NCBI GenBank assembly: GCA_038087875.1
Contig: CM075989.1
Coordinates: forward strand, 17,052,001-17,116,000
Direction: 5' to 3'
Source of the DNA: Malacoraja senta
Lineage: Eukaryota
Length of the DNA: 64,000 bases
Shown: piece by piece, positions 2,168 through 58,241 of the stretch
How positions within the stretch are numbered: the first letter of the stretch is position 1
Layout of the letters: every line of letters starts with the position of its first letter
Made by a program: the position numbers and the translations under genes
Notes under the pieces: model-generated
What the model was told of the DNA's origin: nothing
Databases searched by the model: none
What the model saw: only the letters and a program-made list of their open reading frames with translations

Positions 2168-2390
2168 TGTGTAGGAAGGAACTGCAGATGCTGGTTTAAA
2201 CCAAAGATAGACACAAAATGCTGGAGTAACTCAGCAGGACAGGCAGCATCTCTGGATAAAAGGAATGAGTTTCATTATGGGTCAAGTAACCGACTGAAGA
2301 AGGGTCTCGACCCAAAATGTCACCCATTCCTTCTATCCAGAGATGTTGCCTGTCCTGCTGAGTTACTCCACCATTTGTGTCTATCTTTGG
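2168..2390. mobile_element. Palindromic PLE-derived element
   Basis: Same inverted-arm family as 18291-18511. Further copies at about 9815-10065 and 26430-26640. Confidence 0.7.
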
Positions 2391-5305
2391 TACGGATTGA
2401 TTCCCAATCTCGGTCAGTCACACCCTCGGTCAGCCTGCCCATTATCTTTGAAACCCATGATCACCAGGGCAGTGCAAGGCTCACCAGTTTTCTTTTGTTC
2501 ATTCATTTGTGTGTCCCTCGGGTTCTATATTTCTATGGTCCATTTCTTATTATGCATTAAGGTTCCTGCAGTAGATTCTGGAAGTCTAATACTCTCTCAA
2601 AAATGTTAAGATCAAAGGGTGGATTTTGCCTGAACCTGTCAGTGCAAGTTAGATTATTGGCACACACATCATGTGGGGAAGCTGTATCATTCCAAACCTA
2701 CCAACAGATTGTAATTCTGTCCTTTACTTTAATGGCAGGGTGAGTGGACATGTGCTATTACAGCTGTTCCAGCGAGTCCCCCTCTTGCTCTAACCAGCAA
2801 AGGAGATAGAGCACTGGAGAGATACAGCATGGAATGAGACCCTTCACACTATCGAGTCAGTGCAGACCTTCAACCGCCCATTAACACTAATCCTACAATC
2901 TCATCAACTCCTCCTAGATGCTGTTATTCACCCGCACGCTTGGGCCGATTTGCAGTGGCCAATTAACCTTACACTAGACATGTCCGCGGGAGGAAACCGC
3001 AGCACCTGGAGGGCAACTGTCGGGATCTAGGAGACAACCGACGTGCCAGCTCCACAAACTGTAGGTAGCACCCGAGGTCAGGATCGAACCCGGGTCTCTG
3101 GCGCTGTGATACAGCGGCTGTACCCGCTGCACCACTGTCCAGTTGTCACCTTGGACCGACCGGGCAGAGCAGAGCCTGAACTTGCTGAGGTTGCCCATCC
3201 TTGCTGTACTTGGTGCAGGAGTAAAGTCATCACTCAACCTTAATCATGTTTCCCAACATGGAGATCAACTAAAAGGTGAATTGAGTGATTTGTTTTTGAC
3301 ATTATTCTTTTTAGCAATTTATTAGGATTGAAAACAGTTTATTTTTACTCTACATTATTTTTTTTTAAATTACAACAATCATTAAATTTGGGATATCTGA
3401 ATTCCAGAGATGTTTAAACCATCAATGCTATGGTTGGACACTAGGGTTTGCTCCAGCCTTACTGCCTATTAGATGGTCTTGGAGCATACAGTATGAGCGG
3501 TGAAGGGGACAGGGAGGAGGATGGGGAGGGGTAGGGGGAGGGGAGGGAAGAGGGAGAGTTGAGGGTGGGTGCATGGGTTCGTCTGAGACCTCACTGTGTC
3601 TCACACAGTGCCGTCCCTGTGAGGAGGTTAGCTCGCTCAGTCCACATGAGTATGGGAAGACACAGACTGCAGGCTACACCAGTTCCCCTGTTCGCATCCC
3701 TGAATCCCTCTCATTATCACCTCTTCCGCAGCCACCAATCAGCCATTATGGGCTCCACCCTTCCTGGGTCACCTGTTGCCAGCCTGATGTGTTCTGGCCT
3801 TTACCTACACCCAGTTCCCCACCTCTACATTCAGTCTGAAGAAAGGATCCGACCCGAAACGTCACCCATTCTTTTTCACCAGAGGAGCTGCTTGACCTGC
3901 TGAGTTACTCCAGCACTCTGTGTCTTTCTTCGATATAAACCAGCATCTGCAGTTCCTTCCTACACCATAAGCCCATTGAGTTCAGCCTGTGATTTTATTA
4001 AACTATAGTTTCCTTTCCCTTTCTCCTCCTTAATTCTCTTCATTCAGACTTTCTCATCAATTACCTGCTTTTACATCAATTACCTGCTTTAATTCATTGG
4101 TTTTCATCCTTTTTGCTATTTTCACTTCACCTTCGCTTAAGTTTCATTGGTAAGTGAAACAGAAGCTTAGACCCACCAGTCTCTAGTTTGTATCTAAGCC
4201 GCCCAGTTACCAGCCTGTGCTCCTAGTTATCTCAGGTGCCAGAACAACCTGAAAGGGCAGGCAACAAGTCCCATTTGATGCTCAGCTCACCAAGTTCAGA
4301 ACATGTGTGCCAATGTGTCTGAAGGTCGGGGCGTACAATATACAACCCCATCCCTTTGCAACTGTTGCCCAGAGGAATTTAATGGTCAGGCAAGAGGGAA
4401 CACAATTGAAGAAGGGTCCCGACCCAAAATGTCAGCCATCCTTTTTGTCCAGAGATGCTACCTGACCCGCTGAGTTACTCCAGCACTTTGTGTCTATCTT
4501 CGGCATGTACCCGCATGTACCCAAAGGGTTTTATTGTCAGATTTGTTTCACGCTCTGTGACAGGTGCACATGTTCAGTGAATGTGCACAAACTGGTTCCA
4601 ATAGAACCTAACTTCATTAGCAGGTGAACCAGATGTGTCTGTGGTCGATGCAGAGTCCTGGGAACCAAATGAACCAGTTGTCCCTGCCGTCACAAGAAGC
4701 TGTTTGCAAGGTGACCACACTTTGCTGCCCTTCTGTGGAGGGCAAGGGTTTGTCCACATTGAGGTGTGGAGGGGCTGAACCCAGCATGACAGGTGAAACT
4801 CCCATCAGTAACGGCTGAAACGCCCCAGAGAAGATCAATACAAAAGACGGAGGCTCTGCTTCAATCTCTAACATTTGCAGCACAAGTAAATGTCAGCTAA
4901 ATGATTCTACTTTAAATTCTGCTGCCAAAATGTAACTGATCTCAGACATTGCGAAAAGTGGCAATTATCTTCATGTTGTTATTTTCCCAGTACCTTGTTT
5001 CATTGTCAGCATGTTCAGTTAAGCATCCCATCAACATTTTGACTCTCTGCCTGCAAACTGGATAACTCCATCCCGACACAGTACTCTTGTACCTTGTCTG
5101 ATGGAGTCATCAGTCTGATTGTTTTCAGTAATTGAAGTAAAACACTGCACAGAGGAAGATTATGCAAACATTTTAACTTGTTGCTCACTGGTGAAGATTA
5201 AAACCTTACGGTCTGATCCAGTGGACCATGTATAGAGCACACAAAAGGTTAAAACAGTGATAAATATCAGTCCCAAATGCATGTACTGATCTGAGACTTC
5301 AGACA

Positions 5306-5311
5306 TTTATT
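5306..5311 (-). promoter_or_regulatory. Possible proximal polyadenylation signal of MINAR1
   Basis: AATAAA on the minus strand about 32 nt after the stop codon; usage not shown. Confidence 0.25.
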
Positions 5312-5342
5312 CGGACGCTTTCATACAAGTATTATAAAAGCT

Positions 5343-5540
5343 TTAAGATTTCATAGTGCAAATTGGGACCACAATGACCAAAACCACGGTGCAGACCGCT
5401 GCTACGATTAAGGCAGCAATCTTACAAATTTTTGCCCGTCTGAATTCTGCCTCTTTCCGTTTCAGCAAGGAGTCATATCCCGGAGTGTAGATATCCTCCA
5501 TCCAGTACTCTAAGTTATTAGGATTCAAAGATTCTTGATT
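5343..5540 (-). CDS. MINAR1: MINAR1 (KIAA1024/UPF0258) terminal coding exon with C-terminal transmembrane anchor
   Basis: Translates NQESLNPNNLEYWMEDIYTPGYDSLLKRKEAEFRRAKICKIAALIVAAVCTVVLVIVVPICTMKS*, nearly identical to the recalled human MINAR1 C-terminus. Acceptor ttacag| at 5541-5542, phase 0, TAA stop at 5343-5345. The N-terminal part of ORF 5343..5750 is intronic. Confidence 0.95.
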   Translation of the reverse strand, partial: NQESLNPNNLEYWMEDIYTPGYDSLLKRKEAEFRRAKICKIAALIVAAVCTVVLVIVVPICTMKS

Positions 5541-5680
5541 CTGTAAGGAGACAGAAATTTCTGTTAATGTGGTCTTTAGCTGAGTGTACAAAGTAGAGCG
5601 GATTGTCTTAAACAATAGCAACCTGATCCTACTATGTCCCAAATGTAGGTAAATGTTAATAGATTCATGCCAGTAATGAC

Positions 5681-6085: not shown

Positions 6086-6467
6086 GTAATGACCACCAGT
6101 CTCAGGAACAGCTTCTTTGCCTCTGTTATCAGGCTTCCGAATGATCCTTCCATAAGCTAGGGCATGGTTTGATTCACTGCCCTCCCCCCATTGTGGACTA
6201 TGGACCTTGTCTGCTTATTAACTCCCTTCTCCCCTGGGTCTACTTCTTGCTTGCCAGCTCCTGCCTCACTCCTCCTCACTTCCTTATATCTCCCCTCCAA
6301 ACTCTCAGCCCTGATGCAGGAGCTTGTCACGAAACACCATTAATCCCTGTACCACCGGACATGCTGCCTGACTCGCTGAGTTCCTCCAGCAGCACATTTT
6401 GTACAGTATGAGTTATTTTATAATAACGCTCTTTTGTTTTGTTCCAATAAATGAAACCCTAGCTTTT

Positions 6468-6760
6468 GGTGGTGTTTCGAGTCGAGACTGTTCTTCTGAC
6501 TGAAAGTCAGGGGTAGGGAAAAGGAGGGATGTAGAAGGTAAATAGAACAAATGAATGAAAGATATGCAAAAAGGAACGATGATCGAGGAAAGGTGGAGCC
6601 CACAATGGTCCATTGTTGGCTGTGGAGAAGATGATAACAAGTTATACTGATAGTGAAACTCAATAGGACGATAGTGAAACTAGTACATCCACTAGGGTGG
6701 GGGAGGGACGGAGAGAGAGGGGATGCAAGGGTGACTTGAAGTTAGAGAAATCAATATTGA
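6468..6760 (-). mobile_element. Penelope-like element 3' remnant
   Basis: Minus strand ...NIDFSNFK end followed by a UTR homologous to 37770-38100 and a degenerate hammerhead-like motif near 6475-6500. Confidence 0.6.
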
Positions 6761-7344
6761 CAGGGTATAGGATGCCTGAGCTGCAATGTAATATGGCAGA
6801 TGGGATCCCTCCTACATGGGATAATACGTGGACTTGCTCTGAGACACAGTGAGCTGCGTGATTTAATTGCGAGGGTACTTGATGGAAAAAATAAAACTGC
6901 CTGTCTTCAGTTAATACACAGACTGGAGACAATGAGGGAAGAGTTTGTGCTGTATATTGATCAGACTACAGCCAATTACCCAGAGCAGCTGAAAGTTAAC
7001 GTGCATCTCAATGGTGTCAGGGGAAGAGGATCATACAATAAAACCATCAAATGAGACATCGGAGAATACATTAGATGCAATTCACACCCACTGCACACTG
7101 CCTGGAACTGAAAGAGTTGATCATTATCTGTTCTTTACCCAGTAATCAGGGATGGAGAAATACTTTGGTATTTCCTATTAACAGTTTGGGACGGCACATT
7201 GGCGCAATGGTAGAGTTGCTGCCTTACAGCACCAGAGTCCCTGGTTCAATCCTGACTACGGGTGCTGTTTGTACAGAGTTTATATGTTCTTGGATGTGGC
7301 CAGTGAGCTTGTTTATATACTTTTATAATTTTATACACTTCTAT

Positions 7345-8095: not shown

Positions 8096-8436
8096 GAGTC
8101 TGAAGAAGGCCCACAAAAGGTATCATGCCTTCCCCAACCAACAATGGGCCATTATGGGCACCACCTTGGTCATCTGATTTCTTCTGGCCTTCTCCTACCA
8201 CCAGTTCCCCCCCCCCCCCCCACCATCTACTTTCAGTCTGAATCAGGGTTCCGACCTGAAACGTCACCCACCCTTTTTCTCCAGAGATGCTACCTGACCC
8301 GCTGGTTACTCCAGCATTTTGTGTCTATCTTCCTATGAATCCTCTGCGGGCTGTCTTCTCTGAGTCTGACTTCAGAAGAGTTTTAAGGAAGATTACAGCA
8401 CAATAGCAGAATAAAGACACTGATTCCGGACTTCAC

Positions 8437-8688
8437 CAGGATTTCCAGAGCTGTTAACTCTACCTTGTCACCGGTCCTGTTGTACTCCTCAATGACCCAT
8501 GATGGCTGCGGCTGCTTCTGCTCCAGGACCTCGGTCAGCCGGAGATCCGTGTACAACGGGTTGTTCTTCATGTGAGATTTCATGGAATTGGGATACATGT
8601 GAGGGCTGAAGACCTGTTCGATTAACAGGGAATCTTTCCCGGGCTTTGACGACCGATGTGACTGTGAAATTTCGCAGCGGCGATCTCC
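8437..8688 (-). CDS. MINAR1: MINAR1 penultimate coding exon (84 codons)
   Basis: GDRRCEISQSHR...LIEQVFSPHMYPNSMKSHMKNNPLYTDLRLTE...PSWVIEEY...KVELTALEIL matches MINAR1 EQVFSPHPYPASLKAHMKSNPLYTDMRLTE. Acceptor ttttgcag| (8689-8690), donor |gtgaag (8436), phase 0/0, joins in frame with both neighbours. Confidence 0.93.
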
Positions 8689-11600
8689 CTGCAAAAGATT
8701 TGAAAGGAGTGAGACCCAATGGGAAGAACAGGAAAATGTCATCTCATTACAAGCGGCAGTAACCCAAAATGAAAAAATAAGGCATCGCCATAAGTAGTAG
8801 ATCAAAAGCACCCAAAACTTGAGGTGATCTCTGGGTTCTTTATTTGGAGAGAACCAGGTGGTTTGACACATTGCAGGACGGTGTAGCCTAGCTTGACTAA
8901 GATCTCATCAACCACCCTAATCATCCATTCTCTTCACCCACTGCACACAGTGACTCCATTGTGCACCATTGACAAAGTGTAGTGCATTTCCTTGTCTAGA
9001 ATACTCCAGCAATTATTCACAAGCCCGTAATCTCTATTACCAAGAAGAACAAGGACAACAGGTGCATGAGAATATTTTCACCAGGTTCCTCTCCAAGCCC
9101 CACACCATTCTGACTTGGAGATGTATCATTGTTCCTTCATCATCATGAGTTCCACATCTCGGAGCTCTCATTCAGACAATTCCATGGGAGACTCTTCACC
9201 AGATGGAATGCAGCGGTACAAGAAGATGATTCACCAATTTTTCCAGCATTTCTGTTTTATTTTTCCAGATTATCAGCATTATACAGTCTGCTGATTTTCA
9301 TTGTGAATGTGAGAGTTGACTTATCACAAAGGTTCTTCCTTCCAATGCTCCAAGCAGCAAATGGAGTCAATGAAAGGCAAATTTACCTGATCTGCCACAT
9401 TTCCAACCAAGTTACAACCATTGACCATTCGGGGAAGCCCCCGTTTACTTCTCCCGTGACGATTGCTCAAACCCGGATTGATGCTGGGTATTATTTATAT
9501 GTAGTATATTTACGTAAATGTAGACCGCAGCTTAATACTGATGGTATACCCGGTTAGAAACCAATATTAACAGATTGACCATTAATGGGATTGCCCTGGG
9601 AGCTCAAATAGACTTGATGGGCTGAATGCCCTCCTTCAATATCATAAAGAAGTGGGAAATGTGAGAGTAAATCAATCCAACAAGATTTAGGATATTTTCT
9701 TCAGACTTTTCTCTTACGCTGTCTATTAATCTAACAGAACTTGACAAGTGGGAACAGTCTTTGTTTAGAATCTCATTCTGATGTTTTTAGGAAAATGACG
9801 CAATCATACTGGACAGAAGATAGACACAAAGTGCTGGAGTCACTGGGATCTTCTCTGGAGAAAAAGGATGGGTGATGTTTCAGAGCAGAATCTTTCTTCA
9901 AACTGCTAAGAGCAAAGCAGTCTGGAGAAGGATTCCAACCCAAAACGTCACCCATCCTTTTTCTACAGAGATGCTGCCTGGCCCACTGAGTTACTCGAGT
10001 AACTGGGGGCTTCTCCGAATGGTCGTTCTTTGGTGTAAACCAGTATCTGCAATTCCTTCCTACACAATCTTACTGGACTGGACATTCCTTAGAGAGGAAC
10101 ACTCAGTTTGAAATCAATTGCCACTAAACTGAGGTGAAATGCACATAACTTGTACAATAGTCATAGATGGGCTTGCTGACAGTCAAGTGCATGCTATATT
10201 AATGAGAAATTTGGCATGAGCTGTGGCTCATATACTTACAAAATGTGCACTTGTGCTACTAACAACAAAAGGCAAGTCCTATGTGCTTCATTAATAAATT
10301 GGATGGCCCATATCCCACAGGCAGCTAGTCGCTGCCTTGAAGTTTAACAGCAAAAGTCTACAGGTATTTCCAAATTAATTTTATTAGCCTCAAGATTGGC
10401 TTTTTTGCTTCCGGATATGAATCTGTCTCTAAAGGATTATAAACGAGTGCAGAGCTCACATGAATAGTAATTTCTCAATCATAAACAATTTTGTTAGTTC
10501 ATAACATTTCCATATTTCTTCTTAATCTAAGTGGACAGCGTGAGGAATCATTTTCTATTGACCATGACAAACTAAGCGACACAGTCAGGACAGTTGTATC
10601 TTATAGTCCTGTTCGCTATTCACCAGCTTTTACTGAGAGTGGGCCTGATAGTAATTGAACACGGCAGAAGTTAAAAGAAAATGTGCTAAGTTATTCCAAA
10701 CTATTTTCATTGGTAGAAAGGTCAATAATAGAGGGTTCCAGTTCTCGGATAACATGAACCAGAGAGTGAAGAAGATAATTTCCTTACAGCACGGAAGACA
10801 ACATTCGCACAATATACAATGGTTTTGAAATAGTGATGGGCAACCTGGAAAAAACCTTCCTGGAGTCACATCATAATGCGTCCTTCCTTCAAGGAATCCA
10901 GGCAGGAAACGCAACCGCAGATAAAACATCTCCAAGCAGGACATTGTCAAAGTCGTACCATCATCTGTCGCAGATGGACGGATGCCAACAGCATCATGTT
11001 ATTATCTGGAATGCATTGCCGAAAAGGCTGCAAGTTGGCAGAGAATTGCCAGAGCAATGGGAAGACAGCAGGGGAGTGGGACAAGTTAGGCAGCTCTTAG
11101 ACTGAGTCAGTGCCGGCACTTGGAAAATGCATCACTTCACGTATTTCTGCCTTAAATTAAAACTGCCATCTGTCTTCCATTTCACCAGGGTGTTTATGTT
11201 CTCCTTAAACCTGTTCCTGTTTTCATCACTCTGTGCATCATTGTGTCATCTTCAATTTTTCAATGTTGCCCCTTGTATCCTCATCCAGGCCATTAATATA
11301 GATGAGAAGATCAGTGATGTGAACACCAATCCATGTATCTCCCTGCATTCAGATAAACAGCTGCTTACCACCTCTCTGTATTCTGATGATACCACATCCA
11401 CAGGGCCCCTTTCAATTCATCAGCTCCAATTTTGCTGACTTCATCAAAAGTCTTACTTAAGTTAATCCACACACAAAGAAAATCACATGAACCTTATCAA
11501 CTCCCTCCATTAATTCCTCAAGTAACTCACTCAGCTTTGTCAGATGTAATTTGTGTTCAATAAAACTCTGCATGCCGTCAGTTATTCCATGCTTCTAAAT

Positions 11601-12649
11601 CGCAATTAATTTAGTTCCAGGTTATAAACTCTAAAATTTTCCCCAATCCTTAAAGATTAGATTTACCTTATTTGTCTTTTTTAGACGGATTTGTAATATT
11701 TGCAAGATCCCTGTTTATACAGGACTACGTCACTGCAGCTAGAAACTCTTCTGTCTCCCCGTGCCTCCCTCTGTTAACTTTAATAATCCTGTCCTGACTG
11801 TGTAACATTCTTTCCTGAAGGACAGCCTACCTTTCAAAAACGTTATGTTTTGTTCAAGATTTTAGCATCTGCAGTTCCTTGTATCACCATTTTACTGCTG
11901 CACTGTGAAATCTCCTCAAAGTATGACTTCCTCTGATGAATGTGAGTCCCTTTCTTACTGATACCCCTCTGTGTTTATTTACTTATCACTTGCCACAGAT
12001 AGGTATATAATCCATCACCTAGATAATACATTCTAATCTATATCAATCTATATTATATCTATATACAATGTAGATTGTGTATAACTATATTATATCTATA
12101 TCTATGTCAGATTATAATATATAGAATATAATATAATCCCACGCCCACCTCTCATTTCCAGCTTTCTATCTCCTAATAGAATCAGTCTAAAGGGTCCTGA
12201 CCCAAAACATCGTATGTCCATTACCTCCACACATGCTGCTTGATCTGCTGAGTTTCTCCAGCATTTGTGTTTTGCTACCTTTTAAAATGTTTCCTTTTTT
12301 TATATCATTTCCTTCCCAACATGTCTTTTTTCATGTGACATAAAAAAAGAAAGAAATATATGCAGTTGTTGGCCATTCAGATCCTTAAGCCTGCCGGATA
12401 TTTGATAAGATCAGGGCTGTTCCACTACAGTTACTTTAGCCTATGATGTGGAAAATGAGGAACATTGGCCAGATATGTACTGTTCGTGTAAAGCGGGAGA
12501 GATCAACTCCAACTAATTACTGCCCTGTTAATCCACTCTCGTTCATCAGCAAAGTGATGGAAGATGATGCCAGAAATACTAATACATGGGACTTACTCAC
12601 CATTAACCTGCTCACTGATGCACAGTTTAGGTTTCAGCAGAACCAGTGG

Positions 12650-14859: not shown

Positions 14860-15380
14860 TCCACATGCGAACTGGAGAAACAACAACAAATGTAGTCCAT
14901 TCGGGTAGCCTACAACCTAATAGTTTGAACATTGCATTCTCCAATTTTAGGTAACTAACCTACAAACCCTCTTTTTGTTTTCCTCCCCACCCCCTCTTCC
15001 CTATACCCAATCTGGATTCACAACCATTTCTCCTCTTCCTCATCCCCTTCCGCCTCTACTGCTTCCTGTGGCTCACAATTCTCACCTCTTCCATTCTTAT
15101 CTCACGCCTTTTGTCTTTTCGTCTTTGGCATTTGTCCAACCGCCTGCCTATTAACCTCCCCACTCACCTATATCCGCCTGTCATATAGTGAGTAGGGCAC
15201 CTATATGACAGGTGCCCTACTCACCTATAGGCTTTGTCTTGCCCCCCCCCTTCCAGGTTTCTCTACGCCTCACCACAATCAGTCTGAAGAAGGATCCTGA
15301 CCCAAAACGTCACCTGTCCATGTTCTCCAGAGATGCTGCCTGACCCATTGAGTTACTCCAGCATTTTGTATCTATCTTTG
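14860..15380 (+). mobile_element. Decayed Penelope-like element 3' end
   Basis: ...GSLQPNSLNIAFSNFR* (GIY-YIG C-terminus), then a pyrimidine-rich UTR and CTGAAGAAGGATCCTGACCCAAAACGTC near 15284. Confidence 0.7.
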
Positions 15381-17074
15381 ATGAAACTGAAAACAGGTTG
15401 GTCCCCGTCCCCATATCCAAAAGAATTTCACAAAACTAAATCCCAGGATGACAGGCTAAATCAGTTGTGTTCATATTCTTTGATCGGAAGAATGAGAGAT
15501 TTCCACATTGAAGCATATAAGACCTGGTAGGGCAGAAGTCAAAGTGACACAACCGATGTTTTCATGAGTCAGAGATTCTCAAACTAGGCGAGATAGCTTC
15601 AAAATAAGAGGCCAATCATTTAAAACGGCGGTATGTTGAAGCAGTTTGCCTCGTGCAACATCTGATGTTTAGGGTTCCTCAGGAATAAATGAAGGATCCA
15701 TTCATGTTCTTGCTCTGGTTCAACCAGGAAGACTGGGGAGGAAGAATGAACTGGGGTCACTTTTACCTGTAGGTTCAGGGTTAAAGTCTGGCCTCACATG
15801 AGTAGTGCTGACACAGACAGAAAAGGCTGGAATTATTTATATAGGTACATGGATAGGACAGGTTTAGAGAGATATGGGCCAAAGGCATGCAGGTGGGACT
15901 AGTGCAGACGGGACATGTTGGTCGGCGTGGACAAGTTGGGCCGAAGGGCCTGTTTCCATGGTGTATGATTCTATGATTCTATGACTATTTCATTCTCATG
16001 AAAGGTCATTGATCTGAAACACAATGCTGTTCCTTTCTCTACAGCCGCTGTTGGAGCTCTTAACGTGCCAAGCTTTTCCTGGATTCTTTCAAAGACTTCC
16101 CTTTACGGCCCCAAGTCCCTTGTAACAATAAAAGTACTGTGAGCAGATCTCGGTTCAATTGGGTCCGTAACTCCCATGAAAATTTTCAGAACGCAGCAAT
16201 GGAATTTGGTTTAGGTAAACAAACTAACGTGGAGAAATGGCGTGTTTAGTCAGTGCGTTGCAACTGGTAAAGTGGTGCTTCAAGGACAATAAGTTAATTT
16301 AGTTTTAATTCCAGTGCAACATTATTAATAATTCATGAGAGGCTGAGCCGTTATTTCACTCCGCATCAGCTAATCAGCAGCCGTCGCTTAATTTGAAATC
16401 TTGAGTTTGTTTATGCCGTGATGCCACCCACAGCGGGCTCTTAATTGAGATTAACCTTGTCCAACCAAAACAGTGTGGCAATCAATGCTCTCAGAATTAC
16501 AGAATGATTGCACAATAGAAACAGGCTATTCAGTCCCACCAGTCCCACCACATTGCTGTTTATCCACTATGAGTCAGTATCCTAATCCCATGCTTCCATC
16601 CTCCTCTCACAGACCATTATTACACTCTTTCTATCTAATCAATACTCAATTGCTGACATGCCCAAGAAAGACGTGCAGGTTTGTAGTTTAATTAAGTTGA
16701 GTTTAAGACGTCTGTGAATTGCCCCTAGTGCATAGGGAGTGGAAGAGTAAGTGGGATAACATGGAACTCGTGTGAACCGGTGGTCAATAGTTGCCATGGC
16801 TACATGGACCAAATAATCTGTTTCCATGCTGTATCTCTAAACTAGATTTCTGGATTGAAACACACTGATCACAAGTTCCAGTTCATTACACATCACTCCT
16901 GTAACCCACCCCTTCACTTCCAGCACTGCATCATCAACAGTTGTAATCCTGTTCCTGCACCAGCTTGCACTGGGCAGCATCATTCCCCATGCAACCGTCT
17001 TTATGGAATCCAGTCTGGGTTGTCCCATCAGCAACAATTCTTGGTCACTCTTGGGACACGTTGGTCGTCCTATT

Positions 17075-18290: not shown

Positions 18291-18511
18291 TGTGTATGAA
18301 GGGACAGCGGATGCTGGTTTAAATCGAAGATAGATACAAAATGCTGGACTAACTCAGCGGGACAGGCAGCATCTCTGGAAAGCAGGAATGGTTGACGTTA
18401 CGGGTCGAGACCCTTCTTCAGACTGAGGAAGGTTCTCAACCCGAAACGTCACCCATTCCTTCTCTCCAGAGATGCTGCCTGTTCCGCTGAGTTACTCCAG
18501 CATTTTGTGTC
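18291..18511. mobile_element. Palindromic PLE-derived element with back-to-back hammerhead motifs
   Basis: Inverted arms of about 90 bp around 18420. Flanking duplication TATCTCACTATT (18276-18287, 18512-18523). Confidence 0.8.
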
Positions 18512-18998
18512 TATCTCACTATTACTTACACCATGTCGGTGTATATATATATAAATGCAAATTGCCACCACGTCCATCTCCCTGTCACAGCTGAAAACCT
18601 TCTTGCTGGCCTTATGATAAATTCATAAGTTCTAGGAGCAGAATAAGGAAATTCAGCCCATCAAGTCTACTCTGCCATTCAATCATGGCTGATCTATCTT
18701 TCCCTCTCAACCCCTTTCTCCTGCCTTCACCCCATAACCCCTGAGACCCTTACTAATCAAGAATATGTCAATCTCCACCTTAAAAAATATCCATTGACTT
18801 GGCCTCCTGTGGCAAATAATTCCACCGATTCACCACCCTCTGACTAAAGAAATTCCTCCTCATCTCCTTTCTAAAGGTACATCATTTTATTCTGAGGCTA
18901 TGGCCTCTGGTCCTCGACTCTCCCACTAGTGAGAAGTCATAGCTTAGTTTGATTTTTTTTTAACAGTGAAAGCCAAAGGAGCTTGCCAGGTTTGAGTT

Positions 18999-21049: not shown

Positions 21050-21920
21050 AAACAGGACAAATAGTTCACTGTGGCTGGCAGGAAAAAATAAACATAAAAT
21101 TAAATGCAAGGGGAGGCTTATAATGTTGCCACCAGTAGCAATAGGCCAGAGGATTTGCAATATTTAAGAACTCAGAAAGGCAAGATAGATGTGAAACTGG
21201 ACTGGCAAGGAAGATAAAAATGGACTGAAAGGGCTTTCATAGACGTGTAGAAAGGAAAAGACTAGTGAAGACAAGAGACAGAAATAGGTGAATGTATAAT
21301 GGGGGATAAAGAAATAATGGTGGAATTAAGCAATTACTTTGCATCTGCCTTCGTAGATGAAGACACACAAATTTGCCAGATATACTAGAGAACCAAGAAT
21401 GTAGCGAGTACTGAAGACACAAAGTATGAGGTGAGGAGACGTACTGGAAGAGTGTAGAAACAAAGAAATGCCGATGTTGGCTTATAAGCAAAGACACAAA
21501 GTGCTGGAGTAACTCAACGGGTCAGACAACATCCCTGGAGAATGTGGTTAGGTGATGCTTTGGGTCGGAACCCTACTTCAGACTGATTGTCAATCTAAGG
21601 AAGGGTCCCGACCTGTAACGTCACAAATCCATGTTCTCCAGGGATGATGCCTAACCCGCTGAGTTACTCCAGCACTTTGTGTCTTGTTTAGTAGCACTGG
21701 AAGAGCTAGTGAGCTTGAAAGCTAATAATCCCAAAGATCCAATGATATACATCCCAGAGTTTTGAAGGAGGTGGCTTTAACGAGACAGTATGCTCTGATT
21801 ATCAGCTTCCAAAGATCTATAGTGATTGGAATTATTCCTGTGAATTAGCGGGTAACAAATTAGGTCCCAAAGTGTTCGGTAGGAGGGAGATTAACAAATA
21901 GGGAACCCGTTGGCCTAATT
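21050..21920 (+). mobile_element. Decayed CR1 ORF2 fragment (interrupted by PLE palindrome)
   Basis: Purine-rich CR1-like sequence (..ttaagcaattactttgcatctgccttc.., ..atacatcccagagttttgaaggaggtggct..), homologous to 59230-59920. Confidence 0.6.
21453..21695. mobile_element. Palindromic PLE-derived element inserted in CR1
   Basis: Inverted arms (gacacaaagtgctggagtaactca... / ...tgagttactccagcactttgtgtc). Flanking duplication ACTGGAAGAG (21443-21452, 21696-21705). Confidence 0.75.
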
Positions 21921-32427: not shown

Positions 32428-32468
<41 letters not shown>

Positions 32469-32469
<1 letters not shown>

Positions 32470-37764: not shown

Positions 37765-38100
37765 TCTCTCCGTCTCTCCCTCACCCTGGTTGTCATACTA
37801 GTTTCACTGTCGTCCTGCTTAGTTTCACCGTTTGTATCACTCGTCACCCACTCCACAGGCCATTGTGGGCTCCACCTTTCCTTGATCATTGTTGTTGGCT
37901 TTTATTTGTCCTTTTACATACCTTTCATTCATTTGTTCTTTGCTCCCTTTCTTATATCTCGTTTCCTTCTCCTCTGACTCTCAGTCTGAAGAAGGGTCTG
38001 GACCCGAAACGTCACCTATTCATTTTCTCCAGGGATGCTGAGTTACTCCAGCTTTTTGTGTCTATCTTCGGTTTAAACCAGCATCTGCAGTTCCTTCCTC
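37765..38100 (+). mobile_element. PLE-derived 3' repeat carrying an intact hammerhead motif
   Basis: Homologous to 6468-6760, 30627-30860 and 3690-3965. Ends ...ccagcatctgcagttccttcct. Confidence 0.7.
37986..38013 (+). ncRNA. Minimal type I hammerhead ribozyme motif (PLE-associated)
   Basis: CTGAAGA-A-GGGTC-TG-GACCC-GAAACGTC: conserved core, stem II, palindromic ACGT stem III and GUC cleavage triplet. Confidence 0.6.
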
Positions 38101-44128: not shown

Positions 44129-47100
44129 CATTAAGCTTTCTCATTCCACCGGCAGTTCTCTATGAACCCAGTGCAGTATAGTAACAGATATGAAATTGGC
44201 AGGCTGCTGATAAGAAAATAGGAGTCTCAGAAACTGCCAGAGTATGCTGCTGACTACATCTCCACTGTTTTGACTGGCGTAATTATAATTTCCCTTGGAG
44301 TGTGAGACTTTTGTTTGTAACACCTACTGTGGATGATTGGTTTCCAGGGTTCTTTTTTTTCTCTTTTTTAACACGAGAATATAGCACAAACCTTGGTATC
44401 TCAACATCAAAACAGAGATGGTGATCGCGAGGTTTCGAGGGACAACCATATCGGCCTGCACCAGGGTTCCCACCCACTCAGTCTGTATGTTACTAGTGAC
44501 AATAATGAAAATGCTGTTATGGGTAAATTTGAACGATACTTGCTTTGATTTTCAGCCAATTTGCTTCTAGTTCCAGGCTGTAATAATAGGAACTGATAAA
44601 TAAATCATTAGCTCATTTAAACTAGGGAAGCATATGATAGATGTGTAGTGCCTGCCAGTAATTCCATGGCAAGGTTTTCCAATTGCTTACGCTGGTTTAT
44701 TATAAACCTTATCAGCGTGGAAAGAATAATATGCAAGGATGAATATTACAACAGACAGTCTGAGACCCTGAAGTAGTCATTCTTTCAGTTTAATTTCACT
44801 CTAAACCCAGGTTAGGTATATCCGTTGAGCTTCAGAGTAATTTTACAGCCCAACTCCAATATAAAGCTTTGACATTTTCTCAGAGAGGACTCATTTTGCT
44901 GAGACTTCTCTAGATATTAATCTTTATCTAAACACTTCAGGTGGTCAATGGATTTTAAACCATTGAATCACAGAAAATACAATACAGAGGGGCCATTTAG
45001 CCGACCATGTCCATGCTGGTTCATCGCATCTCCCTGCGCTTGGTCCATAGTCTTTAGACTTTTGATTTTGGAGAAATAGGCCCTTCCGTCACCGAGTCCG
45101 CCGAACAGCGATCACCTCGTACATTAACCTACACATAGTAGGGACAATTTTTACAATGCACTTAAGCCAATTGAGCTTCAAACCTGAACATCTTTGGAGT
45201 GTGGGAGGAAGCTGGAGCAACCGGAGAAAACCCACGTGGTCACGGGGAGAACGTACAAACTCCATACAGCTAGCACCCTTAGTCAGGATTGAACCCATGT
45301 CTCTGGCGCTGTGAGGCAGCAACTCTACCGTTGCGCCACCGTGCCAGCCTAGTTGTGCAGGTCATGGCTCTTCAAGTCCACATCCAACTGCTGTCGTAAA
45401 TATGAGAAGGACTTCTGCCTACATCATCACCCGAGGCAGCGAGGTCCAGAGCCACATCACCCTCTGGGTGCATAGAATTTCCTCTCTAATCCTTCTACCA
45501 ACTACATTACGCTTGTGCCCCCCTCATTTTGGTGCCGTACTGCTAAGGGAAATAAGCCCTTCCTGCTCACACCATCTAGGCTCCTTGTGATTTTGTTCTT
45601 CTCAATTAGACCCTTGCCTCCTATGCCTCAGTGATTCAAGAGCTCAACTAGAAACTTCTTAAATGTTGTGAGAGTTTCTGTCTCTCCACTCCTCGCTACC
45701 TCCCAAATTCCAAACATCCTCTGTGAAAAATGTCTTCTTCAGATCCCTGGCAAACCTCATACCTCTCAGCATAAAATTATGCCCTCTGTTCATAGACACA
45801 TTCTGCCACGGCAAACCAAATTCTTACTATCCACCCAATCTATGCCTTTCATAATTTTTGACATCTCCATCAGGTCCTCCCTCAGCATCCTCCAATCCAA
45901 GGGCAACAAACCCAGCATATGCAGTCTCCCCTCATCACTAAAGGCACATTCCAGGCACGCAGTGGTGACTCCCCATTACACTCTCATCATTGCAATCACC
46001 TTCTTCCATTTCACTTCTTAAGTTATGCACATTATGTCCGATGAAAGGTCATTGACCTGAAACAAAAATTCTGTTTCTCTCCCCATCAATACTACCTGAC
46101 CTTGTCTGAAGAAGGGTCTCGACCCGAAATGTCACCTTTTCCTTCGCTCCATAGATGCTGCCTCACCCGCTGAGTTACTCCAGCATTTTGACCTACCTAC
46201 TGATAATCTCTGATAGTTTTTGATTTTATCCGTGATTTCCAGCAACTGCGGTATTTTGGTTTTGAACCAGACCACCCTGAAGTCCAAAGTGTGACCCATC
46301 TCACTAACGACTTTCTATGGCTGCTTTATCGTTCTAATGCCAACCTTTTTATTAGCACACTCTCTACACATAGGACTAAAATATATATATTATTAGAAAA
46401 CAAATCCCATGGAACCACATTCTTAATGCTCAAAACACACCCAAGCAACATTCCTCCTTGCTTCATGCTCTGGGTCAGTTTTGGGTTCAATTTGTCAGTC
46501 TCTTAGACCCTGGGAGCTTTTAATTTTTTGACGTTTCTGAAGCCGCTGGAAATTATTTTATTTTATGCTGAGCTCATTTTTCCGAAGTCTTGTTTAAAAG
46601 GTGGGCTAGGAATGATTAAAGTAACAACGGATTTCATTTCGAAATGCCCTGCGGTGTAAAAGAACTCATCTATTATATGCCCCCCAAGTTCTGAAGCCTT
46701 TTCGATCAACCCACTACAATTGATTTCAATGTAAAAAAAAATCCAATACAAAAAATCTTAAAATTAGTAGGCTTTGCTTCAACTTGTATCCTCAGCTGCA
46801 AGTGAAACATCTCATCATCCTTGGCCGACTTGCTTAATTTCACGCTTTTAAACGGCTAACACATTTTTCTCAAAGTACAAGGAATGATAGAGAAAACAGG
46901 TTTAGTTCCTTTTTTGGCAGAATGAATCATTCCACCAACAGAAACTAAATGAGGTTATGATCATTTCAAGGATACTTGATCTCAATTAGTTCCTGTTAGA
47001 CCTTAACCAATGGTGCGTAAAGTGTGAAAATGTCAGGTATAAAAATAGACCAAAATTGCCACCAATTAAATAAAAAACTGCACGGCTATTTTGGCTGATC

Positions 47101-47969: not shown

Positions 47970-48189
47970 AAACGACACTAGTCCTGGAGTAACACAGCAG
48001 GTCAGGCATGATTTCTGGAGAACATGGATAGGTGATATTTCAGGTTAAGATCCATAATCAGTTTGAAGAATTGTCTTGATCCCAAACGTCACTTATCCAT
48101 GTTCTCCAGCGATGGGTCCTGACCTGCTGAGTGTCTCCAGCACTTTGTGACATTTTGTGTATTAGCAAGCATCTGCAGTTCTTTGTTTC
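47970..48189. mobile_element. Palindromic PLE-derived element
   Basis: Inverted arms. 14-bp TSD TATGGAATTTGATA (47956-47969, 48190-48203). Confidence 0.75.
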
Positions 48190-51064: not shown

Positions 51065-51083
51065 TAACCAGTAGGTGGCGCTT
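51065..51083 (+). promoter_or_regulatory. Candidate CTCF site
   Basis: TAACCAGTAGGTGGCGCTT fits the core CCASYAGRKGGCRS; lies in non-repeat sequence. Confidence 0.5.
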
Positions 51084-53801
51084 GGCCCCATCTCTTCCAT
51101 CTACAAGTCACTATTATCTATTCACTATTCACTATCACTGTAACGTGGAAAAACCAAATGTACGCCTAGTATTTGCTCTAGCTAAGTACCGAATCCATGA
51201 TCCTGTGGTCCCAATTGTATCTCACTCCAGGTAGTTTGAGGCTAAAGCAGAGGGAAGCAGAAAGATCAACTTACTTGTTGATTGGAATGGAGTACTTTAG
51301 TCATGTGGAGAGATGATCACTATGTTTAAGACTTATTTAGATATTTAATAGTGCATATAAGGATACTGAACTAACGCAAGCAGATGGGGTTAGTGTAAGT
51401 GGGCATAAATGTCAGCAAGGATGGGATGGGCCGAAGGGCCCATGATAGTGCTGTATGGCTCCATAATTCATGAACACCAAACTATTGTGATGTTAATCCT
51501 CATCCCTGGTGGGCAGAGCTCCAGCTACAAATAGGTGGAGTGACTTTAAACTGTCAATGTCAGTGCCAAGGAATCCTGTAACCTCTCCCTCATGCCAATT
51601 TTACATTCCCATTGTATCATCATCATCAGTTCCTTTCCCACTCAATCCGCTCTACCTCTACCAGAAGGATAACAGTAGACTTCGAGCGAACATAGAAAGC
51701 CCTATAGAATTGACAGACCCATGGCAAAAGGAATTTAATGCATTGAATTGCTTTGAAATATCTTGGCTGGGAGAATAAGGAGAGGCAATGCATATTTAGC
51801 AATACATTCTAAATGGGCAGAAGAACAGAGACCTGAATGAACATTTAAAGGTGACATGGCAACTAGTAAAATATCTGAGACAAGAAACTGCAGATGCTGG
51901 TTTAGACAAACGGATAAAAAGTGCTGGATCAACTCAACATATCAGGTAGCATTTCTGGAGAACATGGACAGGTGTTGTTTCAGGTCAAGAGCCTTCTTCA
52001 GTATAAAATGCCTCAATGTAGTGTTATGTGAGTAGACTAGCAAAGCAAGGAGGCTTTGTTGATCTTTTATAAAACATTACCTACTGCATACAATTGAGTA
52101 TTGCAGCCAATTCTGGTCACTCCAGAGAGCATGTGAAACCATGCAGTGGTGCATTCAAGTGTAATTAACTCCAGAGATGAGGGACCTCAGCAACACCAAA
52201 CCAGAGAGGCAGAATGGATTTGCTCTCCTGGGAGATTGAGAGAAGATTTGATAGCAGTGAAGAAAATTATGACAGGTTTAGATAATAAGATGAAACTGTT
52301 CCCATTAGTCGAGGGATCCAGTACTCGAGGACATAGATTTAAACAACTGACAAAAATCAAAAAGTTGTGTGAGGAGAATTCTGATTGCACACCGATTTGG
52401 AATTCTCTGGCTGAATGCAGATTTAAACTAAAGGCAAAAATGTGCAGGAATCTCAGGGTGCTGCAACGGTTAGAACCGCTGCCTCACCACTCCCAGCAGC
52501 CCAGGTTCAATCCTGACCTCGGGTATTGTCTATGTGAAGTTTGCACCTTCTCCCTGCAACCAAGTGAGTTTCCTCCGGGTGCTCCAATTTCCTCCCACAG
52601 ATCAGTAGGTTAATTGGCTACTGTAAATTGTCCCTGGTGTGTAGTTGAGTGGCAGAATCCGGGAAGTGGAAATGGGAATGTAGGAAGAATAAAAGGAATG
52701 AGAGTAGGACGTAGAAAATAGATGCGTGAAGGTGAACGCATACGTTATCTGCTTTCATCCTGTATCTCTCTGTTCCACGTCCCTGAGTAGGGAAATCGAC
52801 AACCAGAGGACATAAGTTTAAGCTGAGTGGAGAAAGATTTAATAGTACCTGAAGGGGTAACTTGTTTACACAAAGGGTGGTGGGTGTATGAAATGAGCTG
52901 CCGGAGGAGGTAGTTGAAGTAGGTACTGTCGCAACGTTTAAGAAACATTTAGACAGGTACATGGATATGATAGGTTTAGAGAGATATGGGCCAAAAGCAG
53001 GCAGGTGGGATTAGTGCAGAAGGGACATAGAGAGAGTGATAGACACAGCCTGGTCCATCATAGGTACTGACCTCTCCGCCATCGAAGGGATCTCGAGGTT
53101 TTTGAACTATTATGGTACCTAGTATTACAGTTATTCATTTCTTGTATCACGATTATTATATATTACCCAAGTGCTAATGCATTTATGGGCTTGTTAAGCT
53201 GCAGCAAGTAAAGATTTCACATTCATGTTGTTCGTACATCCGACAACTAAACACTTTTGACTCTTCATGCTTGACTTAATATTTTACCTGTAAATGCCTG
53301 TGAAAAATGTGTGTAGTTTGAAAGATAAATGTTATTTACTGTCAAATCAATTATAAATTCAAAATTAAAAGTTATGTGTGGATTAATAATAAAAACACCA
53401 TAAAACTGCAAATTAAAAGATGTTTATTCATATTACAAAATAATTGCCTGAGGAGATAACCCACTTACCTTTTCTCATTAATAAGGTCTCCTTACTTGAC
53501 TGGAGTCTACAAGGCTGACAGCCTGTGATATGACCCGATCTTTACTTGGATTATATGTGCCACTTAACCTTATACAGGATCCATGCATCCTACACCACTA
53601 ATTGGTCTCACCACTTCCCATAATTGCACATAGATCATCGTAATTAACAACAATGTATTTTATCCGCACAGACCAACAGGCTGGTTGCCACGGACACCCA
53701 GTGCCCACCATTGGAAAACTCCTGTGCAACCCACTGAAAAATCTGCCCCAGTGAAAACTTCAGCGTTCAGTGGTACCTGACAATCAGTTGTTGAACAGAG
53801 T

Positions 53802-53829
53802 CTGAAGAAGGGTCTCGGCCCGAAACGTC
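53802..53829 (+). ncRNA. Minimal type I hammerhead ribozyme motif
   Basis: CTGAAGA-A-GGGTC-TC-GGCCC-GAAACGTC within a ~97-bp insert flanked by the direct repeat TCAGTTGTTG (53784-53793, 53891-53900). Confidence 0.6.
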
Positions 53830-56800
53830 ACCCATTCCTTCTATCCAGCTGCCTGACCCGTTGAGTTACTCCAGCATTTTGTGTCTATAGTCAGTTGTTG
53901 CATCGGTTACTGAGCTGAAAACAATTAATTAACTAAAATGACTGAAATAGCTTATAATGGTTTTTTTCCAGTACTTTTTGTGTGACGGTACATACCATTA
54001 AAACATTTGCCGACTCTTCAAAGATGAAAACTAGATCTTTACATTTTATTTAACAAAAAACATTGATTTCATACTTTTTCGTTATTGGTTTTTTAAATTA
54101 GAAGTGGATTGGTCACAAAATCAAAACAGAAGAGGAGAGATGTATTGTCGAGATAAATTGTCGATAATTGTAGGTTAATTTTTAATTGGTATGTGTACTG
54201 GCAATTCTTGGTCCACAAAAAGGCACTGTTTCTTCCCATTAGAAAGGTAGAGATTTTTATTCTTTAGAGTCAATTTCCTTGCAAGCATTAAAGTAAAAGA
54301 GTCAGACCAGCATTTAATAAATGAGTTTGTTGGTCAGCACCTATTGACTTAAACAACTCTTTTTAAAAGTTTTTTCTCCTGAAATGGAAAGGTTGCTGAA
54401 CCCTGAACAAAAGTGACAACATAAATGAGAAATACAGAGAAATGAAATAACTCTGAATGAATGGATTGATTGGTTTTATGGTGAAAGCTAAAAGTTCAGA
54501 TGTTTTACCGTTTCACTGTATAACACTGTTCATGCAGACTGGGCAATGGAGAGGCCCATTCCACTGGTCGGTTGTCTCAGGCTCCCAGATTATGGAATTG
54601 GGAATGGTTACAGGGATAATATGGCACAGTCTCCATCCTGTGTCATTGGGCTAATCTGAATTGAGACTGTGGAATTATCAGGAATGCCTTTAAAGAGAGT
54701 CAAGTCGAAAAGGGAGGCAATTTATGTGTGGAATTCCAGAGTTCCCATTGCCTCTAAACTCAACACTTGCCTCTAAACCCAACCTCTGGTGCTGCCTGTG
54801 TGGAGTTTGCACGTTCTCCCTGTGACCACATGGGTTCCCCCTGGATGCTCCGGTTTCCTCGCACATTGCAAAGACGTACAGGGTTGGTGGGTTAACTGAC
54901 TGCTGTAAATTGCCCCTGGTGTGTGCGTTAGTGGTCGAATCGAGGAGCAGTTGATGGGATTGTGGGGGGAATAAAATAGGTTAGGGTTTGTGCATGCTAA
55001 TGGTCAGCATGGACTCAGTGGGCTGAAGGGCCTGTGCTTTTTCCATAAATCTCGGTGAGATCCAATTCTGGCATCATCCACATTTGGCATCTCAATGGCT
55101 GACACATGTACACACTGAGACTCAAGTGTAATGCCTCTATGGAAGGGGAGCAATGATCATTAATCAATGAGGTCCATTTATAAAATGAACCCCAGACTTT
55201 ATTTGGAGAATCATCGGGGAGGCGATGACTTGACCAACTTTGTTGGCAACATCTGGAAATATGAAATATGAAGAAATATGAATTCTCCAGTCTGAAGAAG
55301 GATCCCGACCCAAAATGTCACTCACCTTTTTTTTCAGAGAGGCTGCCTGACCTACTGAGTTACTCCAGCACTTTGCGTCTATCGTCAGGGAACAGGAAGC
55401 TGGATACAACTCAGACGTACAGGGTTGGTGGGTTAACTGACTTCTGTAAATTGTCCCTAGGTGTGTAGGGCAGAACTAGTGTATGGGTGAACACTAGTCA
55501 GTGGTGACTCGATGGGCCAAAGGGCCTGTTTCCACACGGTATCTCTGAACTAAATTCTAAACTAAATTATTGTCCATTATTTTTCCCAAAAGAAAGCAAA
55601 CTGCATAATATCATATGGAGATGATTGGGACACTGTGTCATTAGGTTGTGGCTACTGATGTAACACACGTCGCAAGACAAAAAGCACTTTCTCCATCACA
55701 CACATTGGTCTAGATTTTTAAGATTGATATTATTTTAAATGCTGATAACACAAATGCTAAGGTGAGAGGGGCAAAAGTTTAAAGAGGATGTGCGGGGCAA
55801 GTTTTTTTGGCAGAGGGTGGTGAGTGCCTGGCACATGCTGCCAGGGGTGGTGGTGGTGGAGGCAGATACGAATGTTGCATTTAAGAGACTTTTGGATCGG
55901 CACATGGATATGCAGGGAATGGAGGACCGTGGAATATGTGCTGGCAGATAACAGTTGGTCTTGGCATCATGTTCGGCATGTGGGCTGAAGGACTTGTTAT
56001 TTTGCTGTTGTGTCCTATGTTCTATGTAACCCCAACATTCTAAGATCAGGGGATTACAGGAGGAGAAAAAACAATTGGGAGCATGGTCACATCCTGTCAT
56101 TATTGCACCTATCGTGTAGCAGCTTTGGCAGAGATTTATGATCTGGTCAGATCTGAAATCTGTTCACTTGGAGTTGTGGATTAAAATCCCACTTTAATTC
56201 TTGCAAAGCATTAGTTGGTATCAAATAGTTAAACTATTTCAGTCAAGAGAGGCCCAAGCACCGTGGGGTGCAAGTTGAAAGGATGATGTTCCCCTTCATT
56301 ACTTTGCAAACTCTTCAATTTTCAAAGATATAGCTGATAAGAATTGGCATTCAAGAATACAACAAATCTTCCAGGCAAATCCAATTCTCATTTGCAGCGT
56401 TCATATTCTGTTTGGAACGAGGGCAAATGCCATTTCAAGAAATCAAAACATCTGAATTTCTGTAACATCTTACATTCAAGCCATAAAACAGAACACTAGA
56501 CTGCGTTGTTAAGTCAATAACAATTTCAGAAGCGCAGCATGGTGGCGCAGCGGTAGAGTTGCTGCTCCAGAGACCCTGGTTCGATCCTGACTATGGGTGC
56601 TTGCCGACGTGGGTTTTCTGTGGGAGCTCCGGTTTCCTCCCACACTCCAAAGACGAACAGCTGTAATTATAAATTGTAATTTGGTCAGCGCGGACTCGAT
56701 GGGCTGAAGGGCCTGTTTCCGCACTGTATCTCTGAACTAAACTAAACTAAATTAACAAGGTAGTTGGCATTTTTCCTGTAATGATAACCCTACTGCATTT

Positions 56801-57891
56801 CACGAGATGAATGCTTTCAATGCTGCCAAACAGTATAATCTGTTTGCACTCCCCTGCAGTGAGGGAGTGAAAGCCAAAAACCTGTCTAATTCCCAAGGTG
56901 CTGTGAAGGATGTGTGCATCTAGCATCTTTCTGATGAGAGATGACTTGTGTTGAGGAAGATACACATCAAGTGTGCGTGTGCTAATCGCAGCCAGCAACA
57001 GCGTAAACATCATGAGAGCAAACCTTTGCCACTCGTTTGGATGAGTACCCAAAAGAACGCAATAAATCTTGCAGACAAGATAGGTGCGCTGAGAGGGAGA
57101 AGAAGAGAAACGAGCAGCAGATCATTTAAAGTTATAGGCTGGGCCTCCTCTGTTCTCTTCTTTCCAGCACATCAGCTCCCGAGCAAAATTTACTCTCGAC
57201 AAGTCAGGCTCTTGCTGATGGTTCCAGTCAATAATTCGCTGGGTGATCTGCCAACATCTGTCCAGCCTCCACAGGCAGCTCACTCATCTTGAGAAGACAT
57301 CCCGGGGAAGCTGGCTTCATTCCCGAACAAACACGGCAATGCAGGCAAATGGAAATGCAGTTGATTCAATGAAGCTGGCAGAGGTGATGAGCAGACACCT
57401 CACGCCCCACATCATATCTCGATGATACCTGCTCTGGCTTATTGGAGCATAGCTGCAGATGCAGATAATGCTCGATCTCCCGTGATGCAAAGATAGGATT
57501 TGCAACTGAGAGAAACATGAGGAATGAACACTTAAGGTTTGGAATTTAAAGACAAAATTGAGGACATGCTGCGAAGAATGTTGATATGTCTTGCTGCGGC
57601 TCTCGGTATTCTATTACACCTTTCAAGAAATAAATATCCTGGAATTCATCCGATTTTAAATAAATGATATGATGGTACACTATAGGATGCCATGACCAGT
57701 TCTCACATTTGAAAATTCACCTAGTATTATTGCAAGTCTGATCCCATCCAGGCTTTTCCTAATCCAGGAACTGCAAATTGAAAAGTATGGGCAAGGATTG
57801 CTCAGCCAGCTGGACAAGTTGGCTGGAGACACAAGTCACAACAGATGCTGGGAACTGGAGCAAGAAAATAAATTGCGAGAGGGAATATGGT

Positions 57892-57919
57892 CTGATGAAG
57901 GGTCTCGATTCGAAACGTC
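57892..57919 (+). ncRNA. Hammerhead ribozyme motif with canonical CUGAUGA core
   Basis: ggaatatggt-CTGATGA-A-GGGTC-TC-GATTC-GAAACGTC-atctattcc; the flanks can form an extended stem I. Confidence 0.6.
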
Positions 57920-58241
57920 ATCTATTCCTTTTCTCCAGAGATGCTGCCTGACCCACTGAGTTACTCCAGCATTTTGTGTTTATCTTTTATGAGAGGAACT
58001 CAGCGGCCCAAGCAGAGTCTGTGGAGGGAATGGGACAGTTGACATTTCAGTTTGAGACCTTTCCATTGGATTGTGGAGTTCAGATCGGTTGATCAATATA
58101 CATGTAACACATTCACCTTTAGGAATAGTTTTAAATCTATTAATTTGTTTGATGTGGCATTGCCGATGAAGTTCACAAAGACACAGAGTGCTCCACAGAG
58201 ATGACACAGAGGGTGGTCTGCAGAGCTACTCTGGGAGATGC

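Follow-up and report, generated by a model that had tools for sequence, protein, structure and literature searches.

Is the motif that recurs across a 64,000-nucleotide stretch of the genome of the cartilaginous fish Malacoraja senta (GenBank assembly GCA_038087875.1, contig CM075989.1, positions 17,052,001 to 17,116,000 of the forward strand; hereafter the window, numbered from its first letter) a hammerhead ribozyme (HHR), to which element does it belong, and could it cut the pre-mRNA of MINAR1, a gene with copies of the motif in its introns? A reading made from the letters of the window (the sequence-only reading) had proposed minimal hammerheads spread by Penelope-like elements (PLEs). Our analysis makes it highly probable that the motif is the minimal type I hammerhead (min-HHR) of the PLE pseudo-long terminal repeat (pLTR), and that the copies in the window are insertions of element ends, short and for the most part mutated, likely with no role in host cleavage.

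The hammerhead motif and its parent element

A hammerhead-like motif is indeed present where the sequence-only reading had placed it. Using a profile built from 14 window copies, with matches accepted at E<=1, we found 43 matches in the window, 29 of which span the core by hand count (one per 2.2 kb); the earlier figure of about 20 motifs, or roughly one per 3 kb, was right or slightly low. Five control windows, reversed or shuffled, gave 0, 0, 0, 1 and 0 matches. About seven window copies form head-to-head inverted pairs, an arrangement absent from the earlier description.

The family is also very abundant, as had been claimed. Across the 1.94 Gb searched, the 28-place pattern of the sequence-only reading has 22,936 exact matches (reversed control, 0), and a degenerate minimal-hammerhead core pattern returned 77,292 matches (control, 3). 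An evenly spaced sample of 120 stretches of 10 kb (1,198,600 bases, large contigs only) contains 523 matches. Of these, 345 span the core (one per 3.5 kb), a density that extrapolates to ~560,000 recognisable core-bearing copies genome-wide. With positions numbered from C3 = 0, a pattern for the region at +150 has ~1,400 genome matches, and the frame of a GIY-YIG C-terminus in the window (23254-23472) gave 80,912 first-look candidates. A search of Rfam (E<=10) gave no hammerhead match and nothing matching the repeat above chance, which says little because min-HHRs lack helix III.

The identification as a PLE pLTR hammerhead holds, since the motif sits in both pLTRs of elements in which a reverse transcriptase (RT) and a GIY-YIG endonuclease (EN) are collinear in full copies. 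Longer copies match RVT_1 (PF00078) at 29.8 bits, over the cut-off. Loci L166, L167 and L174 are partial tandems of pLTR, open reading frame (ORF) and pLTR, with the motif at both ends and a unit of 3.4-3.85 kb (L166 and L167 look like duplicates); L172 likewise carries the motif in both pLTRs. The CX4CxxC linker seen between RT and EN in P0003 suggests a Neptune-type element, the clade being assigned by this linker motif only, which Nematis shares (CX2-5CxxC linkers are tied to both; Craig et al. 2021, PMC8557442). In the window, the motif had been placed directly 3' of two GIY-YIG C-termini. One is clear (23254-23472; 70 aa, matching a longer genomic copy at 90%, E 2e-39), whereas the other, at 14862-14951, is reduced to some 16 final codons (E 4e-4); there is a third, weak one at 6735-6776 (E 0.3).

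The motif consists of CUGANGA, one extra A, a stem II and GAAA-CG-U-H. Stem II had been drawn with 5 bp and a 2-nt loop; it turns out to have 4 bp and a 4-nt YUCG loop. The CUGANGA and GAAA boxes and U16.1-H17 are the majority base in each core column. The unpaired base between 9 and 10.1 is A in 94% of 138 copies, and G10.1-C11.1 is G-C in 176 of 258 and, through CpG decay, G-T in 42. The palindromic 15.2-16.2 pair, without loop 3, is C-G in 125 of 256 copies, most others being CpG decay products. Helix II is paired in 86-90% of cells. Helix I has only 2 bp, the third pair being A-C in 170 of 232 copies, and 42 of the 61 descriptor-passing sample copies have a 2-bp helix I. The descriptor was passed by six window copies, and core, stem II and the exact ACGU palindrome are all kept in only three, at 37986, 53802 and 57892. 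These three had been listed among the best copies; several others so listed are broken, with stem II damaged (3836), G8A (30731-30758), 16.2 of the palindrome lost (23117-23144) or C15.2U (46106).

Inserted copies decay neutrally, as their flanks do: among 268 sampled copies, the mean identity of ten non-CpG core columns (0.923) does not differ significantly from that of 35 flank columns without a common variant (0.909; p=0.10), and CpG columns have fallen to 0.66-0.82. The two tests proposed by the sequence-only reading, for excess core conservation and for stem II covariation, gave weak results; as to the second, no pair shows a common double compensatory change among sampled copies and only single-sided U-A/U-G changes occur, at two pairs. 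Subfamily variants, by contrast, affect none of the ten non-CpG core columns but 17 of 52 flank columns (Fisher p=0.05), and the changes seen are tolerated ones (N7, H17, and U-A to U-G at 10.4-11.4 and 2.1-1.1), a weak sign of constraint acting on master elements. At 6311-6402, 35348-35439, 46030-46101 and 57993-58063 lie relatives of the repeat that are older, have diverged further and differ in their stems; they would be a source of covariation if widely sampled.

The hammerhead was not the lowest-energy fold in any of five copies, as monomer or dimer; for the copy at 37986 it has -3.9 kcal/mol against -5.6 in the monomer and -6.1 against -26.4 in the dimer. An extended helix I was looked for and not found in the folds of the copies tested. 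Because helix III is missing and helix I has 2 bp, the ribozyme of the master element likely needs a dimer and protein help. At some inversion junctions (window 57876-57930; G000 C1:20746601 and C1:42421925) the reverse complement of the downstream arm stands directly before the core and would give a long helix I. A check for editing scars, made against the majority base, counted 138 A>G and 306 T>C changes; two copies in which T>C accounts for 7 of 8 and 7 of 12 changes (L223:248-364 and L206:4189-4273) could be A-to-I scars on the opposite strand or an older subfamily.

Two observations concern the element itself. L174 (3084-3210) has a 41-codon upstream frame from +49 in its pLTR, and its long frame appears by eye to start near +164, beside a splice-donor-like site. 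Small unplaced contigs (L042, L046 and L047) carry a near-identical 430-codon PLE frame, which recurs on eight or more small contigs and is embedded in a larger repeated unit together with LINE (long interspersed nuclear element) pieces plus short tandem repeats; the ribozyme tail of this frame is truncated directly behind the cleavage triplet.

Copy ends and templates

Of the 523 sample matches, 428 passed our score and flank filters for the analysis of ends. Most copies are stubs of 95-135 nt. The 3' ends of the filtered copies peak at +86..99 and +130..131, ~36 nt apart, the spacing of a PLE tail, and the 5' ends at -8..+3, where 194 copies begin (128 at unique flank, 66 at an inverted partner), with 81 further upstream. 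The cleavage-site window, in contrast, has five unique-flank 5' ends against 3.3 expected (p=0.24). Because 5' ends pile up just before the core and not at the cleavage site, the templates of the stubs were likely uncut at the ribozyme. Target-site duplications (TSDs), mostly 9-16 bp, were detected (score >=9) in 27 of 132 short copies, compared with 21 of 1000 shuffled pairs, and the TSD examples gave no sign of microsatellite targeting. Neighbouring matches are arranged head to head in 99 pairs, tail to tail in six and in tandem in 17, so that ~38% of sample matches are arms of head-to-head pairs. Loose contig ends in two related organisms fall at matching places (-3 or -1, +94 and +129), which agrees weakly with these peaks; those at 53799 were rejected as independent support, since the window copy itself begins there. 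A second start site upstream was also rejected: 64 longer copies truncate smoothly.

The sequence TCAGT precedes C3 in 51 of 59 ORF-linked copies, even though the spacer from stop codon to ribozyme varies widely among subfamilies (~80 to 220 nt). TCAGT matches the initiator consensus. An internal promoter in the pLTR is described for Penelope (PMC2377424). The copies could arise as follows. The enzyme of the element would nick DNA, and reverse transcription would start internally at one of the two tail sites (target-primed), copy through the uncut ribozyme and end at TCAGT just before the core, most likely since the RNA has its initiator-like start there; inverted pairs would result if both DNA strands serve as primers. 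For the sharp 5' end, the cause that we favour is RNA starting at TCAGT, at a little under an even chance. A fuller version is more doubtful: RNA would start three bases before the core, stubs would be run-off ("strong-stop"-like) cDNAs of the first pLTR that are inserted on their own, joined head to head or transferred back into the same RNA, and full tandems would come from a second template without an end there, either a read-through RNA or a ribozyme-cut and ligated circle. If this is true, the genome documents the Penelope life cycle on a very large scale, with the ribozyme uncut in the main template.

Longer copies bear on this proposal. Among 70 loci chosen by the pattern at +150 (107 when all loci are counted), 52 copies break off at +184 to ~+280; 25 of these then run directly into a sense copy of the element end by script, and more by eye. 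Among the 13 break-off copies (up to +390) that extend as far as the ribozyme, nine end once more at -3..+1, a pattern that looks like template jumping after run-off. Full-length copies beginning at the cleavage site amount to one case (L170, +30 from C3), with no pile-up, and a back-spliced circle, which would use the donor-like site at +161, left no junction visible by eye among the 100 junctions listed or in 68 rows.

Several results weigh against the interpretation given here. Cleavage, transcript starts and RNA ends are not among the observations, which come from contigs. The GIY-YIG match (PF01541) has E 7e-4 but falls below the Pfam cut-off (20.2 against 22.6 bits), 105 of the 132 stubs have no clear TSD, and there is little to suggest a cap G (AGT is preceded by an extra G in 9 of 16, p=0.007; 35 of 100 by hand, inverted arms included). 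All five pattern-picked loci that enter the ORF and reach the ribozyme continue upstream (p=0.002-0.006 against the stub stop rate), as do 27 of 28 body-linked rows over the 107 loci, of which three are repeated and many possibly duplicates. Near-full-length copies that do not stop at -3 misfit a simple one-template model in which RNA begins there, and hint at two template classes.

The sharp 5' end might instead reflect a block to reverse transcription of unspliced RNA, at a 3' splice site or a bound protein. A long pyrimidine tract does end in CAG one base before the core, an intron of Drosophila virilis Penelope ends at the 5' end of helix I (PMC4209133, PMC2377424), and many subfamilies have GT at the stop codon as a possible donor. 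However, no genomic copy joins the ORF end to the ribozyme, with a gapped pattern comparable to one that worked elsewhere; the joints listed for four runs, which may or may not be RNA, include none of this kind; the donor GT is missing from one young subfamily; and a block of this kind should stop full-length copies too, which it does not. We consider it unlikely. That the stubs propagate themselves, as a non-autonomous family resembling short interspersed nuclear elements (SINEs) or retrozymes with its own master copies, is very unlikely, in spite of their defined ends and TSDs, the ~560,000 core-bearing copies compared with ~1,400 matches at +150, and an internal promoter that, if present, each stub would carry. 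Both main stub sequence types are also found ORF-linked, tandem neighbours are rare, and PLE RNA of the anole needs sequence downstream of the start sites (PMC11167929), which stubs lack.

The question remains of what the ribozyme does. It is quite unlikely that the motif is kept for a non-cleavage job, as a promoter or protein-binding element, and that the ribozyme is vestigial even in masters: the 2-bp helix I, the want of double compensatory changes, the 5' ends at the cleavage site, which show no excess, and anole hammerhead mutants without effect on PLE insertion in vitro (PMC11167929) would fit this, but subfamily variation spares the catalytic positions, and the changes that occur are tolerated ones. 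Cutting of host transcripts, including MINAR1 pre-mRNA, by dispersed active copies is extremely unlikely. With so many intact cores genome-wide, trans-dimers are conceivable, contigs from a relative's possible RNA runs contain the repeat, and Xenopus retrozymes are reportedly enriched in intergenic DNA (bioRxiv 10.64898/2026.07.22.740005). On the other side, hand counts in the mapped MINAR1 introns gave eight sense and 11 antisense copies; in each of the eight sense copies the core, the palindrome or both are no longer intact, and five of them belong to inverted pairs, one of which folds at -151 kcal/mol. Since no sense copy is intact and all three intact window copies are antisense, cleavage of MINAR1 pre-mRNA, which the sequence-only reading had considered for sense-strand copies, is not supported, and neither is a role as host-gene regulator in the window. 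The short helix I argues in the same direction, as do published min-HHRs, of which monomers were uncleaved and dimers weakly cleaved (PMC4209133), and the anole HHR, which needed protein and had no RNA sequencing ends at its site (PMC11167929). If the repeats affect host RNA, long hairpins may be a likelier route than cleavage.

Features of the window

Table 1. Copies of the repeat and MINAR1 coding exons in the window
Feature	Position	Strand	Remarks
pLTR stub, intact min-HHR	37945..38069	+	~40 nt of pLTR upstream; C3 at 37986, cleavage predicted after 38013; MINAR1 antisense strand
Short stub (-3 to +92), intact min-HHR	53799..53888	+	C3 at 53802; possible 10-bp TSD
Short stub (-2 to +95)	57890..57986	+	stem II weak (two G-U pairs); core and palindrome kept
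Short stub (-2 to +93)	46104..46198	+	C15.2U (CpG decay); older degenerate copy just upstream (46030-46101)
5'-truncated PLE end	23021..23473	-	last 72 GIY-YIG codons (23254-23472), pyrimidine-rich spacer, HHR with C3 at 23144, palindrome lost, tail to ~+131; MINAR1 intron, sense strand
Older PLE end	14862..15387	+	last GIY-YIG codons (to 14954), ~330-nt spacer, HHR at 15284 with G12 lost
Degenerate HHR fragment	6468..6776	-	weak GIY-YIG C-terminal remnant upstream (E 0.3)
Head-to-head inverted pair	18314..18517	.	centred on TCAG/CTGA palindrome; single hairpin fold, -151 kcal/mol; both cores mutated
Head-to-head inverted pair	2191..2395	.	
Head-to-head inverted pair	9813..10002	.	degenerate
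Head-to-head inverted pair	21487..21690	.	degenerate
Head-to-head inverted pair	26430..26605	.	minus arm with core and stem II, without palindrome
Head-to-head inverted pair	47974..48156	.	degenerate
Stub with upstream pLTR sequence	30651..30799	-	G8A core mutation
Stub	3827..3943	+	core boxes intact, stem II damaged
Stub	4405..4511	+	core decayed
Stub	8229..8333	+	core decayed
Stub	12156..12282	+	core decayed
Stub (-3 to +98)	25059..25161	-	core decayed; MINAR1 intron, sense strand
Stub (0 to +89)	51912..52002	-	decayed
Stub (-4 to +93)	55283..55395	+	core decayed
MINAR1 last coding exon	5352..5555	-	PF06789 positions 93-160
MINAR1 penultimate coding exon	8446..8682	-	PF06789 positions 14-94
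Likely large upstream MINAR1 coding exon	27462..29418	-	assigned by strand, position and motifs

The insertions at 46106, 53802 and 57892 are likely old, because two related organisms have contigs (~95% identity) that pass from the flanks into these copies; no empty insertion site in the relatives is among the joints listed.

The segment 27462-29418 contains motifs that we take to be those of the large MINAR1 exon; it has no family match, a protein atlas search included. It appears to change frame several times beside a 200-N gap (29419-29618), probably through assembly indels or possibly because the gene is broken. MINAR1_C matches elsewhere, of a paralogue (G000 C1:150549977-150579983 and C3785:13368-13544), consist of inverted and duplicated pieces, with TAG inside three of the matches. 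Two other elements were noted. A 310-codon frame with a zf-RVT match (32557-33489, plus strand) is likely the end of a LINE ORF2, and two frames at 42036-43622 (minus strand), one with a Spin-doc zinc finger match, are likely a DNA transposon remnant.

Comparison with known systems

The role of PLE hammerheads is an open question in the literature (PMC4209133, PMC11167929, PMC8557442). To it this family contributes counts: copy ends are not in excess at the cleavage site, are strongly so at the 5' edge of the ribozyme, and follow another pattern in near-full-length copies. The copy ends record how the element likely copies itself, and the tens of thousands of intact cores are good ground on which to test selection against sense-strand intronic copies. 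The class is already known, and we found no literature naming this cartilaginous-fish PLE family, in a search that lay outside subscription journals, Repbase and Dfam.

Other PLEs are among the closest systems. In PAc, a Poseidon element of the anole (Frangieh et al. 2024, PMC11167929), a 30-40-nt tail is bounded by two internal sites at which RT starts and genomic copies end, a pattern that the 3' ends found here match; uncut RNA serves there as template, as is likely here, and both strands are extended, which would explain the inverted pairs. Unlike PAc, the present element has a Neptune-type cysteine linker and a long ORF that appears to start well downstream of the HHR, and the pile-up of 5' ends at the ribozyme edge has no counterpart described for PAc in the accessible text. 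RT, CX2-5CxxC linker and C-terminal GIY-YIG are shared with EN+ PLEs of the Neptune clade, as are partial tandems, an adjacent inverted 5'-truncated copy and a 30-40-bp tail (PMC8557442); the lack of microsatellite targeting in the TSD examples is a difference.

Animal non-LTR retrozymes (bioRxiv 10.64898/2026.07.22.740005) are likewise PLE-derived and non-coding, with a type I HHR, and have been reported in the one chondrichthyan genome sampled there. They are tandem arrays with an HHR per unit, whereas the copies described here are solo or inverted stubs with TSDs; identity with a tandem retrozyme was rejected on the 17 tandem compared with 99 head-to-head neighbours.

The ribozyme itself is best compared with the PLE min-HHRs of Cervera and De la Pena (PMC4209133), whose Table S1 and Fig. 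S3 contain no cartilaginous fish. The copy number found here is far above the 4,000 reported for coelacanth and 9,000 for Xenopus, the descriptors being different. It differs in its helix II of 4 bp and its helix I of only 2 bp; in PLE min-HHRs helix I is typically 3-5 bp, though 2 bp occurs in the Drosophila and Culex rows of Fig. S3, and the fish rows have at least 3. It shares with them both core boxes, the extra base between 9 and 10.1, G10.1-C11.1, the palindromic 15.2-16.2 pair without loop 3, the presence in both pLTRs, and copies that are mostly single and dispersed, and it matches all four min-HHR features listed by those authors. Judged by its sequence, the motif is thus a PLE min-HHR in every feature tested except the length of helix I.

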